Source of the DNA: Octopus vulgaris
Taxonomy: Eukaryota
Assembly: GCA_951406725.2 (NCBI GenBank)
Contig: OX597817.1
Coordinates: forward strand, 127,596,001-127,660,000
Length of the DNA: 64,000 nucleotides
Reading direction: 5' to 3'
Below the pieces are notes generated by a model. That model was not told the origin of the DNA, ran no database searches, and worked only from the letters and a program-made list of their open reading frames with translations. This document shows positions 14,511-50,074 of the stretch, in pieces (position 1 is the first letter of the stretch; each line of letters starts with the position of its first letter). Both the position numbers and the translations under genes were made by a program.

Positions 14511-14722
14511 CGCCCTCATTTGATTTTAATTCTTAATTAATATGTTCTCAAACCGGCGTAAACTACTGCAGTGAATTGTTTATGCAGTATTTATTTCCGG
14601 GAATTTAACACGCTGGAACGAGGGCATTTGAATATAACTAGGAATATAATATGCCGTACTGCTCGTGTTTTTGATCTCATGTTAAGATATGGCGTGCAGT
14701 TCGACAAATTATATTTTTGACG

Positions 14723-14801
14723 GACGCCACTGATGATCTGCAAATTAATTGTATGAGTAAAATTGCATAATTTATTAACAGTGAAACAATTGTATGGGGT
14801 T
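14723..14801 (+). ncRNA. Type I hammerhead ribozyme motif (C3-G8 core)
   Basis: gacgcca-CTGATGA-t-ctg..cag-t-GAAA-caattg-TA-tggggtt. Stem I 6/7 pairs; palindromic loop III. Confidence 0.75.
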
Positions 14802-15236
14802 AATCTATATTTTTGTTATTTTTCATTTGTCCTGCGCGCTTACGTTCATAGTGTGCTAAGTTTTTCTTGAGAACAATTTTTAGTGGTTAGCGTAAGGGCG
14901 TCCACTTTAGTGGATTCTCTCTCATATGTATATATATATATATATATATATATATATATATATATATATATATATATATATATATATGTAAGTTTTCTTG
15001 AGAACAATTTTTAGTGGTTAGCGTAAGGGCGTCCACTTTAGTGGATTCTCTCTCATATGTATATATATATATATATATATATATATATATATATATATAT
15101 ATATATATACATATGAGAGAGAATCCACTAAAGTGGACGCCCTTACGCTAACCACTAAAAATTGTTCTCAAGAAAAACTTAGCACACTATGAACGTAAGC
15201 GCGCAGGACAAATGAAAAATAACAAAAATATAGATT

Positions 15237-15315
15237 AACCCCATACAATTGTTTCACTGTTAATAAATTATGCAATTTTACTCATACAATTAATTTGCAG
15301 ATCATCAGTGGCGTC
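15237..15315 (-). ncRNA. Type I hammerhead motif, mirror copy, same sense as the PLE ORF
   Basis: Reverse complement of 14723-14801. Confidence 0.75.
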
Positions 15316-16116
15316 CGTCAAAAATATAATTTGTCGAACTGCACGCCATATCTTAACATGAGATCAAAACACGAGCAGTACGGCATATTATATTCCTAGT
15401 TATATTCAAATGCCCTCGTTCCAGCGTGTTAAATTCCCGGAAATAAATACTGCATAAACAATTCACTGCAGTAGTTTACGCCGGTTTGAGAACATATTAA
15501 TTAAGAATTAAAATCAAATGAGAAGGGCGTCCACTTTAGTGGATTCTCTCTCATATGTGTATTAATAATATTTACTGAATCTCAATTTTTTTATGCGCTA
15601 AACCACTGGTGTTAAATTGATGTTATTAAATTAATATACAATTTTTTCACCCTCATTTTGGGGGAGAGGGGTTATAATTTTATATATTTTTCATTTTATT
15701 ATACGTAAAGTTATTCTTATGTCGGCATTTTTTTCCTCTCTCTTCAATACTCTTCAGCAATACCTCTCTCGACCGGAGTATTTTCATAAACTCTGTTGTG
15801 CATAATAAGCACATTTTATTACCTATTCTATATGACTTCGATCTGCAAATGTAGCGTTGATCAAAAATATCTTCTTTCCTCACAGACTAATAACAGGTAA
15901 ATTATATAGATTTTTTCAAATAATTTTATTGTATTTTATAGTAGTTTTTTTAAATGCTTATATTATTTTATTGGATGAGTTGCGGTTCTATTAGTAAAAT
16001 CCCAAATTTGTAATAATATTATAAATGATATTATTTACATTGCATTTGTAAAGTGTAAAATCGCAAATATCCTGATAACCTGGAATACTTATTATTCCCT
16101 AAGATTTTATATATAT

Positions 16117-16469
16117 AACAATTGCAGCGTGGAAGGTGTTTACAAGCTATTTAATAAACACACAAATCCGTTAGATTCACTTCAACATTTAAATTTAATT
16201 TGCCAAAATATTTTCCTCGCATTGAGTCCGCGACCTGTTCACTGACAAAATTCTGTGCAGCACGGAATTTTGTCAGTGAAAAGGTCGCGGACTCAAAGCG
16301 AGGAAAATATTTTGGCAAATTAAATTTAAATGATGAAGTAAATCTAACGGTTTTTGTGTGTTTATTAAAGGGCTTGTAAACACCTTCCACGCTGCAATTG
16401 TTTTCGTTCCAACACACGATCTCTGACCCCAGATCAATTGCTACGCAAGTACATCTCCGTAAATCTTTC
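16117..16469. mobile_element. Fold-back element (~142-bp arms plus unique tail) between TA tracts, probably PLE pLTR-derived
   Basis: 16117-16258 is an imperfect reverse complement of 16260-16402, with several substitutions. Each arm has a hammerhead fold. Confidence 0.8.
16199..16249 (-). ncRNA. Hammerhead motif with G3-C8 core
   Basis: Minus strand reads tttgtca-GTGAACA-gg-tcgc-ggactcaat-gcga-g-GAAA-atat-TT-tggcaaa, with a 7-bp stem I. The plus-strand twin at 16269-16319 has core GTGAAAA. Confidence 0.65.
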
Positions 16470-46877: not shown

Positions 46878-47930
46878 AGTGAATGTTTAATCCTTCGAGG
46901 CAGTGCTCTAGCACGGTCGCAGTCCAATGACAGGAATATATAATTCTTTTCTGCGTTGCTTACTTTTTAACTACATTAACAGTTGCGTATATAATTTAAT
47001 TTAGTCTAGTGACATTGATGATCGTGTCTGTGTTCATTAAGTGTGAGATAGTACATTAGTCTTAATTTAGTGTGTCACGGGTTATTTTCTCTCTATATAT
47101 TATAAAAGACTATAGTCATACCTCTGTTATGAGGTTAGATTTCAGCTCTGTGCATGTAGAAAATGCATAGAACAATAGAACTATATTTTTGTGTCCATTG
47201 ACACATGGGGTAGAAAGGGCTCCTTAGCCGTAGTGAAGGCAATCTATCTAGGGAGATAACCTTAGAATAAATCACTGGGTCCGTAGCTTAGAAATACTGG
47301 GTTGACGTCCAGCGGGAACAGCTTTGTTTCATGGAGGAGGAAAGATCTTCTTTAGTACTTGGTTGTACAATGCTTTCCAATGTGTGTAGTAGTGGCGCGC
47401 GCACACATTATTAGCCATTTGAAAAGACTATGAAAGTCTCGACCACGGTCGAACAATGATGATGAACACATGTACACCTTTTCTACTTTATTTGCGAAAA
47501 TTAAAGAATAAAATTTGCTTTTTTATTTAGATGGTCATAATTTTCGTCGAGTATCAGTTTATTTTGATTCTGGTGATATCAGATTATATATATTCAATTT
47601 TTCTACTCCTTTTTACATTAGATTCTTAAGTACATCTTCTGCCACGACTTCAACAATACGGCGTTTACGCGCCTGGTGAATCAATTTTATGTGGACAGTG
47701 AAAATTGAATTGTTGCTGATATGAGCCAAACTCCGATAGTTTGCTTACACATGGTATGAGATTGCCGAAAATTGAACATTTATAATCCATTAATTATAGA
47801 GGTAGCGATCAATAAATTTTAGAAATATTACTTAAATGGTTATCCTTCAACATATTCGTCACTGATTCGATTTGATTGGTTGTATTTTAATCGTTGTTAC
47901 TAGATACTTTCGGTGCAGACATCTTTGCTG

Positions 47931-48112
47931 GATTATCATCATCATCATCATCATCATCATCATTATCATCATCATCACCACCACCATCATCATCATCATC
48001 ATCATCATCATCATTATCATCATCATCACCACCACCATCATCATCATCCTTATCATCATCATCATCATCATCATCATCATCATCATCATCATCTTCATCA
48101 TCATCATCATCC
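47931..48112. repeat. (ATC)n microsatellite
   Basis: Seen directly. Confidence 0.95.
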
Positions 48113-48595
48113 TTGTCATTGACATTGTTGATTATATTATTGGTTTCGTCAATTTGTTTTGTCCTTAATGTTTTTTGCATTCATGAATTTGGTGCTTCTG
48201 TTTATTGTAATTGTTTTCTTTGTTCATATATATATATATACATATTTTTATATTTCTGGTATATTTTTTTAATCATGATTTTTGTCATTTTCAGCCATTT
48301 CGTAGAGGAATGCTTAAAATTCATGTATGTTGCTGATTTTATTAATATTGGCATAAAGAATATTTATCCTGTTATTTATATGTGTGTGTGCGCGCGCGGG
48401 TGTTTGGATGTGTAGAAACACTGTTACTAGTACTAGTAATATTTAAATACCAATATCACTTTCGCTCCGCTTCTTCTCGTGACATAACTGGATTTATATA
48501 TTTTGATTTTATTTAAACTTAGTCATGATATTTTATTCGGCTTTCTAAGAATCGTTGATCTTAGAAAAGTTTAACATATTGATAAAGGCTTTTGT

Positions 48596-48698
48596 TTTCT
48601 TCTTCTTCTTTTTCTTCTTCTTCTTCTTCTTCTTCTTCTTCTTCTTCTTCTTCTTCTTCTTCTTCTTCTTCTTCTTCTTCTTCTTCTTCTTCTTCTTC
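48596..48698. repeat. (TTC)n microsatellite
   Basis: Seen directly. Confidence 0.95.
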
Positions 48699-49954
48699 TC
48701 TTAATTTCGATATCATTCTTACATTTTAGCATTTTATATTTTTGTCTCAATCTTTCTTAATCTTTCGTTGTTATGCTTTTTGTTTTGTTCTTCTTTTCGT
48801 CCCATTATTTTTGTTGTTGTTGTTCCTCTTGTTGTTGTTGTTATTATCATTCCTATTGTTATTGTTATTTTGCAACGAGACAAAAGCAATTTAGTAAATA
48901 ACTTTTACCGTAATTTCCTTTATTAACCAAGACTGTCTGAAATGTTTGTTAATTCAGCATTCACTTGGTACATTAAACATACGCCCACACTCGCGCACAA
49001 ACAAGTATACAATTACATTCATACGTATGTACACAAACATTATGTGTATATATGCAAATACATATACACACGTACACTATGTGAAGTTGTAGATGTATAT
49101 GTATAATATAGTACATATTGTATATGCATATATACGCCTACTTACATAGTTCATGCTTGTAAACTCATGTAGATTAATATATATATATATGAATGTATTT
49201 TTATAATTGTTAAAGAGGACAACAAACGCTAAGGCAAGACAAACATCTCAAGTTATATACGTTATTATTATTGGAAACTCGGGACTTTGGTGGCTATTTC
49301 AGAAGAAAGATTTAGTATTATAATCAAATAATTAAAGGTCAATGCCCTAGTCATTACCTCCCCTTAACGGTAGTCTCCCCTTAATCGTACTACCTTCTTT
49401 TGCACGATGCTTGTTTACATGTTTGGTTGGTTTATTTATAATGTCATAAGCGGCCTTTGGCTACTTATAACATATGCTACTTCTCCATACTTTTGCTTTT
49501 TATTAGCTTTTTTATTTACATCTAGCCCTATAACGGTCTTAGTAGCTTGCCCTTTGGATTTAAAATTTAACTGGCCAATTATATTGATGGCTGGACTTTG
49601 GTCAATCCCATTACGAACAATAAGTGGTTGGTCTTTACAATAGGAAGTATATAAATGCAATTAATTTATAGGCATGTTATTTAGATAAATATTAATTAGT
49701 ACTATTTACGAAATCATAAGTACTATTCTTTTTCTAGACCTATTGGCGTAGCCCGTTATACTAAAGTACTTATGTTACTTTTTATTATTTATACATCCTG
49801 TTACCCATAAACAACGATTAACCTACCAATTAATTTACTAGTTTAGTCATTTACTCAACGGCCTGAAGCGTTACACTGGAAAATGGTATGATTCAAATAT
49901 ATTAAGACTTCGTTCCTCCTCCCGAGGCACTTTTCTTTTCTTTTATGTATTTTC

Positions 49955-50074
49955 CTTCACTCTGATGAAGCTCCATGTACCAGCCAGATGCTATAGAATA
50001 TGACGAATTTTATTGTCAGAATTTTCTTTGGCAGCGCTGTGGGACATTGGAAGCAGAAACGGCTGTTAGAAGAG
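49955..50074 (+). ncRNA. Type I hammerhead motif with long stem II
   Basis: CTGATGA(49962)-a-gctccatgtaccagc..gctgtgggacattggaagc-a-GAAA-cggctg-TT-agaag. Stem I is imperfect. Confidence 0.6.

Follow-up and report, generated by a model that had tools for sequence, protein, structure and literature searches.

Type I hammerhead motifs in non-coding, probably Penelope-like repeats of Octopus vulgaris, including a high-copy family with a G3-C8 core

Six loci in the window, the whole 64-kb stretch of Octopus vulgaris DNA analysed here, carry the hammerhead core N3-UGAN-N8-A ... GAA-A15.1/U16.1-H17 with a Watson-Crick 3-8 pair: C-G at four (elements A, D, E and F), U-A at C, and G-C at B, where the plus arm itself reads G3.A8 and the family majority has C8. 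They are probably non-coding repeat ends with type I hammerheads, likely the pseudo-LTR ends of six families of Penelope-like elements (PLEs), inserted into microsatellites by copying in trans; their self-cleavage is predicted to be slow, and family B has a G3-C8 pair. More tentatively, and at somewhat less than even confidence, we propose that a high-copy PLE-type repeat common to several related species holds the first G3-C8 hammerhead from nature, slowly active and selected, beside a Hydra-type set whose helix II extensions of 50-90 nt are missed by the published descriptor and by Rfam. The overall system is of a known kind; its novelty lies in the natural G3-C8 pair and the long helix II, neither of which was found in print.

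Motif inventory and chance expectation

All five motifs of the original prediction (A-E) are present in the sequence, and a descriptor search of the 64-kb window revealed a sixth, F, at 56.8 kb. Descriptor 1, which was tuned on these loci and like descriptor 2 is post hoc, gave seven matches at four loci, six of them with a Watson-Crick 3-8 pair; 400 local dinucleotide shuffles gave a mean of 0.075 matches, or 0.0275 with the pair (at most one). A Hydra-type descriptor gave six matches, namely A (twice), D, E and F, all C3-G8, and one A3.A8 core at 20418; each shuffle gave 0.31 matches of any core and 0.015 of C3-G8. As had been anticipated, the motifs are commoner than in shuffled DNA, with four loci per descriptor against 0.015-0.03 expected per window. 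Several mismatch-core matches turned up at loose settings. Loop-less minimal hammerheads with any Watson-Crick 3-8 pair were not found in the window, and the palindrome at 23203-23446 gave no descriptor match.

A microsatellite lies 67-157 nt past the cut site of the direct copy at five of the six loci, close to the distance of about 60-150 nt first described. For five of six direct copies to have one within 170 nt, at a base rate of 18%, P is about 0.001. Family-wide data cover A and B; C, D, E and F are judged from their window copies.

The high-copy family B

Element B, at 16.2 kb, is a head-to-head pair of copies:

16108..16258, minus strand: inverted copy, tail-less, with a TA-rich flank; core GTGAACA 16242-16236 (G3-C8), G12 16215, U17 16206
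16256..16468, plus strand: direct copy of about 215 nt; core GTGAAAA 16276-82, G12 16303, U17 16312

The direct copy has a stem I of 7 bp and a one-sided tail (16403-16468) followed by (TA)n(TATG)n; the 5' end of the family lies near 16251-16256. Runs under three species labels contain the family at very high copy number; in run X1 the summed depth over B is 0.3-2.3 million, and the lowest flank bins have about 840-1260. The G3.A8 mismatch of the plus arm had gone unmentioned in the original prediction; in four runs position 8 (16281) is C in 86, 91, 94 and 96% of depth, each site being read singly and unphased with position 3, and this majority in all four upholds the G3-C8 core at the family level. 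Position 11.1, read at its mirror 16216 as G and hence C at 11.1, has that letter in 91, 92, 94 and 88% of depth. In family B, G3-C8 is combined with a canonical helix II (G10.1-C11.1). The G.G mismatch reported for this helix proved private to the window copy, and the claim that the first position of helix II is always unpaired fails here, the majority letter restoring G10.1-C11.1 with a 5' bulge.

Positions 16276 and 16242 have no variant among the 40 listed of 223. G>C places number one in three of the four runs and two in X1, and 16302 is expected to account for that one; a C3 subfamily of at least 8% is unlikely, because the sole G>C place in three runs should be 16302 (itself absent from the variants listed, so that a missing entry is no proof). 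Of the proposed 3-8 covariation, the variation among unrelated families stands, while within family B the pair looks fixed.

The majority form shows the features of a minimal PLE hammerhead (9/10.1 bulge, G10.1-C11.1, palindromic 15.2-16.2 plus loop III) and passes a descriptor built on the published PLE consensus with positions 3 and 8 free, with a helix II of 5 bp and a stem I of 7 bp. On 3000 shuffles (384 Mb) the consensus-based B descriptor gave three matches, none with a Watson-Crick 3-8 pair. In the predicted fold of the majority form, stem I has P 0.67-1.0 and helix II P 0.99-1.0; the AU palindrome is weak, with a self-duplex of -0.2 kcal/mol. G3-C8, U17, the G bulge and the weak palindrome would each likely slow cleavage.

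At position 16256, 60 and 69 contigs start behind unlike sequence (agreement 0.42-0.43). The joints among those listed link 16164, 16196, 16200 and 16213 with 16256, and 16249-16262 with 16334-16440; they are inverted copies variably truncated against a fixed start. TA-rich sequence precedes 16108 in 40 contigs. Because B copies include the core together with some 20 nt on its upstream side, we infer that the template was uncut RNA.

When translated B was used as protein bait, one search gave no candidates and another gave three matches (P0002, P0003 and P0004). P0002, an open frame on another public contig, aligns across the B hairpin centre and is a decayed family B copy; G3-implying residues are kept in both arms and the position-8 codons differ, so it supports the hairpin layout and not C8. 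P0003 and P0004 are unrelated. A degenerate B-core pattern had no match in viral sequences; its 12 metagenome matches lay in contigs of 45-67% G+C that lack the rest of the motif, and were discarded as chance.

Elements A, C, D, E and F

The remaining loci comprise the following features:

14511..14928, plus strand: element A copy 1, a non-coding PLE-like end flanked by a long TA-rich array and (TA)30
14727..14797, plus strand: hammerhead A, stem I 14727-29/14795-97 (3 bp), core CTGATGA 14730-36 (C3-G8)
14988..15114, plus strand: second repeat of a tandem duplication (131 bp) covering the A 3' end and (TA)n, without ribozyme
15110..15522, minus strand: element A copy 2, tail-to-tail, 99.8% identity; core 15308-15302, cut site 15244
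15523..15557, plus strand: 35-nt fragment of the A 3' end abutting the copy-2 5' end, a heavily 5'-truncated inverted copy
18538..18703, minus strand: element C inverted copy, U3-A8 core, N3 18688; 19-nt duplication (18652-18688)
18704..18892, plus strand: element C direct copy, core TTGAAAA 18724-30 (U3-A8), C.A then a 4-bp helix II
39770..39940, minus strand: element D, core CTGATGA 39930-39924, U.U, 76 nt between core halves, G12 39847
39925..40101, no strand assigned: diverged inverted repeat upstream of the D core (39925-40011/40022-40101, 71/78 identical), ribozyme not duplicated
49954..50157, plus strand: element E, core CTGATGA 49962-68, A.A, 87-nt extended helix II (z -2.9), G12 50056
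56384..56775, minus strand: element F inverted copy, 5'-truncated, 390/392 identical, (TA)n at its end
56770..57445, plus strand: element F direct copy, core CTGAAGA 56797-803, A.A, 81-nt extended helix II (z -3.1), G12 56885

In hammerhead A, a U.U mismatch precedes a 3-bp helix II, 46 nt separate the core halves, GAA lies at 14783-85, helix III is ACAATTGT and A17 is 14794. Family A is highly abundant. Its copy 2 probably arose by local duplication or reflects the assembly, because other runs hardly cover the junction near 15520. An upstream frame (14562-14717) with an apparent likeness to a GIY-YIG C-terminus was rejected: the majority letters alter the motif, and it has no homologue or Pfam match. 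Element D has the helix III of A, ACAATTGT, with A17 at 39836, a stem I of CACC/GGTG (4 bp) and (TA)n 67 nt downstream; it is decayed (three of four helix II pairs) and was undetected by the stricter descriptors. A and D have in common only the core, U.U and helix III, and stem I differs yet pairs in both.

Element E has helix III ACGGCTGT, U17 at 50067 and a stem I of 2 bp, followed by (TATC)n; no inverted repeat was found there. Element F has a 4-bp helix III (ACAT-G-ATGT), U17 at 56897 and a stem I of 5 bp. Its inverted copy begins within helix II and lacks the first core half, and a partial tandem restart at 57370-57445, interrupted by (TA)n, gives a tandem of about 600 nt. The direct copy of C has helix III AGCGCT, A17 at 18756, a stem I of 2 bp only and an AC-rich tail (18859-18892) followed by (TA)n; with C.A in place of G10.1-C11.1, the window copies of C depart from the minimal PLE hammerhead.

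In predicted monomer folds of single window copies, A, C, D and E do not adopt the hammerhead (helix II of A, P 0.0; stem I of C and E, P 0.0-0.02), and whole elements fold 83-95% paired. The minimum-energy fold of F is the three-way junction itself, so the suggestion that all these ribozymes act as dimers does not extend to F, which folds as a monomer with its 4-bp helix III. Ribozymes on both strands, also proposed, occur at A, B and C; the inverted repeat of D excludes the core and E has none.

Penelope-like identity and comparison with known hammerheads

In the Octopus vulgaris genome, PLEs account for 6.83% and fall into 190 families. Their insertions show an inverted 5'-truncated copy, a 30-40-bp tail and (TA)n targets (Craig et al. 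2021, PMC8557442). In the window, an inverted 5'-truncated copy lies next to the 5' end at A, B, C and F; one-sided 3' tails occur at C (34 nt, AC-rich) and B (about 58-66 nt, longer than typical); and five of six direct copies show the bias for (TA)n or microsatellites. RT or GIY-YIG remnants were not found beside the loci (118 + 10 frames, no relevant Pfam match, no homologue), as is expected of non-autonomous or truncated copies. The insertion traits support the idea of several non-coding, likely non-autonomous families with PLE-type hammerheads. The Rfam hammerhead model gave no match for B, F and E in three targeted scans and none among the best 150 of 332 matches for the whole window; what Rfam does match at the loci is generic microRNA hairpins, scoring under the cut-offs.

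Four of the features are already in print: the U3-A8 pair, the U10.1.U11.1 mismatch, opposite-strand pairs and a palindromic helix III. The PLE pseudo-LTR hammerheads of Cervera & de la Pena 2014 (PMC4209133) are type I, with a short stem I, a 9/10.1 bulge, G10.1-C11.1, a palindromic helix III, U17 commonly, U3-A8 in Schistosoma families and opposite-strand pairs 100-700 bp apart. The B majority form and C fit this class; G3-C8, however, occurs in 0 of the 56 motifs of its Fig. S3 (53 C3-G8, two U3-A8, one U3.G8). The descriptor of that study demands CUGANGA, a loop 2 of 3-10 nt and GAAANNUH, and therefore misses all six window loci. The original prediction that searches for CTGANGA alone would miss such families thus holds in its outcome but only partly in its cause: A, D, E and F have CTGANGA cores and go undetected because helix II is long, not because of the core.

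Elements A, D, E and F match the layout of the Hydra-clade hammerheads (PMC8557442, File S2), which include Hydra-1_Obim of Octopus bimaculoides. That clade has C3-G8, U.U at 10.1/11.1 in 14 of 26 rows, A17 or U17 often, a 3-4-bp helix III that opens with AC and closes with GT, (TA)n targets and a distance of 90-210 nt between motif and 3' end; an inverted 5'-truncated copy with the motif on both strands occurs in one family. Its loop 2 is 3-10 nt, whereas 46-87 nt lie between the core halves of A, D, E and F, and no helix II of that length was found in print for Hydra-clade-type hammerheads. Unlike the clade, E and F have a long irregular helix II hairpin with A.A closure, and A, D, E and F have no RT/EN remnant alongside; A.A and C.A at 10.1/11.1 are absent from the accessible part of the Hydra-clade rows. 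The four elements appear to resemble the clade in ribozyme layout and target only. An assignment of A, D and E to Naiad 'half-core' motifs was dropped, the Hydra-clade layout being closer. The short A, B and C motifs are absent from the supplement text of PMC8557442, in which line breaks could hide them.

In print, G3-C8 was found only as a laboratory mutant: the engineered C3G/G8C hammerhead (Frangieh et al. 2024, PMC11167929; review PMC8495972) has the identical swapped pair and is partly active, whereas B is a natural high-copy family in which this pair predominates. Lunse et al. 2017 and Przybilski & Hammann 2007 may report a natural case or rate. Natural U3-A8 and U10.1-U11.1 are given by Perreault et al. 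2011 (PMC3088659), whose search rejected core changes by default and whose accessible portion has no G3-C8. Animal non-LTR retrozymes (bioRxiv 10.64898/2026.07.22.740005) are short type I hammerhead repeats without coding capacity, for which an origin from PLE pLTRs is argued; they form head-to-tail arrays of at least two complete units. The window loci are dispersed single or inverted copies, with only the partial tandem at F and the 131-bp ribozyme-free duplication at A.

Alternative explanations and proposed mechanism

It is unlikely that the elements are PLE-derived with catalytically dead hammerheads, B above all, G3-C8 having hitch-hiked from a master copy or the fold being kept for protein binding. 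Insertion in vitro does not need cleavage, and RNA ends at the cut site were not found for an anole PLE (PMC11167929); hammerheads may merely parasitize PLEs, according to Craig et al. (PMC8557442); G8C cuts the rate 10^5-fold with only partial rescue by C3G (PMC8495972); sequence upstream of the cut is still present in B copies; and one master element could fix any change. Yet the only two core changes of B hit the one tertiary pair and complement each other, the rest of its core, G10.1-C11.1 and both helices are canonical, and the other non-standard core in the window, that of C, is likewise complementary. The step from C3-G8 to G3-C8 takes two transversions while the other core letters and the helices stay canonical, and for this reason the pair in B seems best explained by selection on the active-site fold.

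Hairpins of 140-410 bp, both-strand motifs at A, B and C, the 83-95% paired folds, the F tandem of about 600 nt and the argued origin of animal retrozymes as non-autonomous PLE derivatives (bioRxiv 10.64898/2026.07.22.740005) could suggest retrozyme- or viroid-like rod-shaped RNA circles with ribozymes in both polarities, replicating as RNA and occasionally copied into DNA. We consider this very unlikely: multi-unit head-to-tail arrays are absent, the fixed start and variable inverted-arm ends are like DNA-level PLE insertion, the arms are near-perfect complements with a buried core and not an imperfect rod, the A palindrome junction is local, and D, E and F have a single complete motif each. 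The rod-like dsRNA with ribozymes first envisaged for the hairpins is likewise improbable, since they match known inverted PLE insertions and would sequester the ribozymes. Inverted arms, TA flanks, lack of coding and the 35-nt inverted end at A also recall MITE-like or fold-back DNA transposons targeting TA, with incidental hammerhead-like letters; this is a remote prospect, given unequal arms with a one-sided tail, variable truncation, arms meeting near a fixed 5' start, the lack of an inverted arm at E and the complete layout in all six unrelated elements. Chance motifs in AT-rich, palindromic DNA, to which the short stems at A, C and E, the post hoc descriptors, the A3.A8 match and the mismatch cores would point, are scarcely credible against the shuffle expectation and the absence of Watson-Crick matches to the B-type descriptor in 384 Mb, although C alone could be of chance origin.

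PLE-type insertion remains the likely account. From PLE biology, an autonomous RT/GIY-YIG protein would nick AT-rich DNA, reverse transcription would begin inside the RNA and leave the one-sided tail, and the palindromes would arise when another cDNA, inverted and varying in length, is attached to the 5' end. Insertion uses mainly unprocessed RNA, and the C3G/G8C change restores cleavage in part (Frangieh et al. 2024, PMC11167929); the family B template would likewise be uncut RNA. The hammerhead is predicted to cut read-through RNA slowly, in B and C as a dimer or with protein help because helix III is a short palindrome, and in F possibly as a monomer. Head-to-head palindromes (B and C) would bury the ribozyme in duplex and remain silent.

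Significance

Six families in 64 kb, uncaught by the published descriptor or Rfam scans, suggest that hammerhead counts for this lineage are far too low. Whether hammerhead cleavage serves PLEs at all is an open question, cleavage being dispensable in vitro (PMC11167929) and the ribozymes possible riders (PMC8557442). Family B is a natural counterpart of the classic rescue mutant, and a natural family with both letters of the active-site pair swapped and the rest kept is a ready test of selection on catalysis. If a selected, slow G3-C8 ribozyme is true, PLE ribozyme catalysis would matter in vivo and would be tuned slow to spare the uncut insertion template.

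Hammerhead motifs and their arrangement

The six loci considered here, A to F, are non-coding repeats bearing hammerhead motifs, and are likely the ends of separate Penelope-like element (PLE) families. The five motifs of the original prediction were all found in the sequence as described, and a sixth locus, F, had been overlooked.

Hammerhead motifs, with core start positions in the window
14730 (+) and 15308 (-): hammerhead A
16276 (+) and 16242 (-): hammerhead B
18724 (+) and 18688 (-): hammerhead C
39930 (-): hammerhead D
49962 (+): hammerhead E
56797 (+): hammerhead F, matched by the Hydra-type descriptor; sixth locus

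One descriptor, tuned on these same loci, left positions 3 and 8 (the tertiary core base pair) free and gave 7 matches at 4 loci, six of the seven being Watson-Crick (WC) paired at 3-8; its shuffle control gave 0.0275 WC matches per window (400 local dinucleotide shuffles). Hydra-clade PLE ribozymes were the model for the second descriptor, whose 6 matches were A twice, D, E, F and an A3.A8 core at 20418 that is probably due to chance, and shuffles returned 0.31 any-core and 0.015 C3-G8 matches each. In the direct copies, the distance between the cut site and the downstream microsatellite is 134 nt in A, 157 in B, 136 in C, 67 in D and 103 in E (the base rate of a microsatellite within 170 nt is 18%), whereas the cut site of F is not followed by one. 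The proposed presence of ribozymes on both strands holds for A, B and C, where both strands carry complete motifs, and not for D, E and F. The inverted repeat of D lies upstream of the core, and E has none. The inverted arm of F begins inside helix II. As for the 3-8 covariation, it is present solely between unrelated families (four C-G, one G-C and one U-A).

Anatomy and predicted folds

The available portion of PMC8557442 describes PLE insertions in which the 5' end carries an inverted, 5'-truncated copy, with a one-sided tail and a (TA)n bias, and the anatomy of the loci is, on our analysis, the same. The tail of C has 34 nt and is AC-rich, and that of B is longer; in the anole PLE such tails mark internal RT start sites (PMC11167929, in the part available). 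None of the six loci has a recognisable RT or endonuclease remnant next to it, so PLE membership rests on layout.

Hydra-clade ribozymes present U.U at 10.1/11.1, the first position of helix II, in 14 of 26 rows (available part of PMC8557442 File S2), a helix III running from AC to GT, and a motif 90-210 nt from the 3' end (PMC8557442, same limit). A, D, E and F resemble these ribozymes, but have 46-87 nt between the core halves, compared with loops of 3-10 nt. This stretch is a long hairpin in E (z -2.9) and F (z -3.1). Of the motifs in the window F folds best, with the hammerhead junction as its predicted minimum-energy structure, and single copies of A and D are predicted to fold poorly. 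F (56384-57445) is a 99%-identical palindrome; roughly 600 nt further along, the element partly restarts in tandem, and this restart ends in (TA)n within its TA-rich helix II. B and C are like the compact dimer-type motifs in the available part of Cervera 2014 (PMC4209133). In the PLE tree, A, D, E and F are predicted to group with Hydra, and B and C with Penelope/Poseidon-type elements.

Window setting and other repeats

The window has 34% G+C and is rich in microsatellites (109 rows) and dispersed repeats, with LINE and DNA-transposon fragments also present; its SINE-like repeats suggest octopus DNA. An older palindrome of PLE-like layout at 23203-23446 (outer arms identical at 83/91, (TA)n at its end) had no hammerhead descriptor match. 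The segments 11266-11505 and 53936-54534, which we take to be 3' fragments resembling R4/Dong-type LINEs, gave a weak zf-RVT match (E 0.006), and each lies near a run of (ATA)n or (TAA)n. A 217-aa C-terminal LINE reverse transcriptase fragment (12824-13477; 96 homologues at E<=1e-40) has a very long TA-rich array on either side. At 860-1305, 1266-1721 and 36090-36792 there are a transposase-like frame between inverted SINE-like ends and further fragments, presumably Tc1/mariner-like, for which no Pfam match was found. Inverted copies of a repeat of about 380 nt (1739-2118 and 27801-28151) are 80% identical, both with short TA-rich ends.

Abundance and majority letters of family B

Contigs from 4 of 24 runs, under three species labels, were compared over 15115-16465, an interval that covers the whole of B and a single copy of A. 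In the run X1 the summed depth of B was 0.3-2.3 million, compared with about 840-1260 in the flank bins of lowest depth; depth does not equal copy number, and we read B as very abundant, with at least thousands of copies. Other repeat families make up the stretch that separates A from B (15575-16080), where depth ranges from about 800 to 100,000 among the runs.

At 16281, position 8 of the + arm, C accounts for 86, 91, 94 and 96% of depth in the four runs, and thus the G3.A8 of the + arm is private to the window. Position 11.1 is mirrored at 16216, where G accounts for 91, 92, 94 and 88%. Family B therefore has a G bulge, and G10.1-C11.1 closes its 5-bp helix II; the G.G originally read at the start of this helix is private to the window copy. 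G3 is very likely the family state, although the letters are unphased: no differing row at position 3 occurs among those listed (40 of 223), of the 8 rows for the four sites at which both arms depart from the majority, 7 are listed, and in three of the runs there is just one G>C place, which 16302 is expected to fill. With majority letters, B passes a descriptor based on the published consensus for PLEs; 384 Mb of shuffles yielded 3 matches to it, none with WC 3-8, and both stems of this form are predicted to fold with high probability.

Sixty and 69 contigs begin at 16256, preceded by unlike flanks, and TA-rich sequence stands ahead of 16108 in 40. Among the joints listed (15 of 183, and a further 12 of the 110 that have intervening letters), several tie variably cut inverted arms to 16256, and others lead from the 16256 start to variable points of the opposite arm. 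The same hairpin centre is spanned by P0002, an open frame in a different public contig. Near the tail boundary of B, GAAAACAATTG (16393-16412, minus strand) recalls the palindrome that A and D have in helix III; it lacks a first core half and is possibly a chance occurrence.

Family A is less abundant than B, and in the run X14 its ribozyme is without cover. Its 12 listed family differences all spare the core and helix III; one of them makes a stem I pair G.U. Its 99.8% tail-to-tail palindrome is probably local, because the outer junction is almost without cover in other runs. The predicted cut of A (A17, then UG; 14794-14796) divides the AUG opening a short frame (21 codons, hydrophobic), and a loose-end variant in the contig comparison hints that this frame may run on in a related subfamily. 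The ORF of the anole PLE likewise begins within the ribozyme.

Relation to published ribozymes

The system is real and mostly known. No natural G3-C8 core was found in the literature searched, a provisional result, as Lunse 2017, reportedly a large survey of PLE-linked hammerhead variants, and Przybilski & Hammann 2007 are outside the comparison. U3-A8 and U10.1-U11.1 occur in nature (PMC3088659, available part), and U3-A8 PLE families and opposite-strand ribozyme pairs are already published (PMC4209133, available part). The 56 motifs in Cervera Fig. S3 (PMC4209133) do not include G3-C8, and neither do the rows of Craig File S2 in the available part of PMC8557442; the accessible parts of PMC11167929 and PMC8495972 report G3-C8 as an engineered, partly active mutant. 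The natural family-wide G3-C8 core is thus, provisionally, a variant not found in print, and the Hydra-type motifs with long helix II are a second, lesser one.

Proposed mechanism

Beyond the observed structure, abundance and majority letters, we infer that a PLE protein mobilised the elements in trans, inserting them into AT-rich repeats, with internal priming and the joining of an inverted cDNA. The B copies retain the core and about 20 nt upstream, which argues that uncut RNA was copied, in agreement with the in vitro finding, from the available part of PMC11167929, that unprocessed RNA is the main insertion substrate. Cleavage after H17, the cut-site residue, is predicted to be slow, and to require dimers or protein in B and C. 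The whole palindromes of A, B, C and F are 83-95% paired in predicted folds. In the head-to-head B and C the complement would be made first in transcription, so the ribozyme would be buried in the duplex. Ribozymes on both strands would thus be a by-product of insertion and no sign of viroid-like replication.
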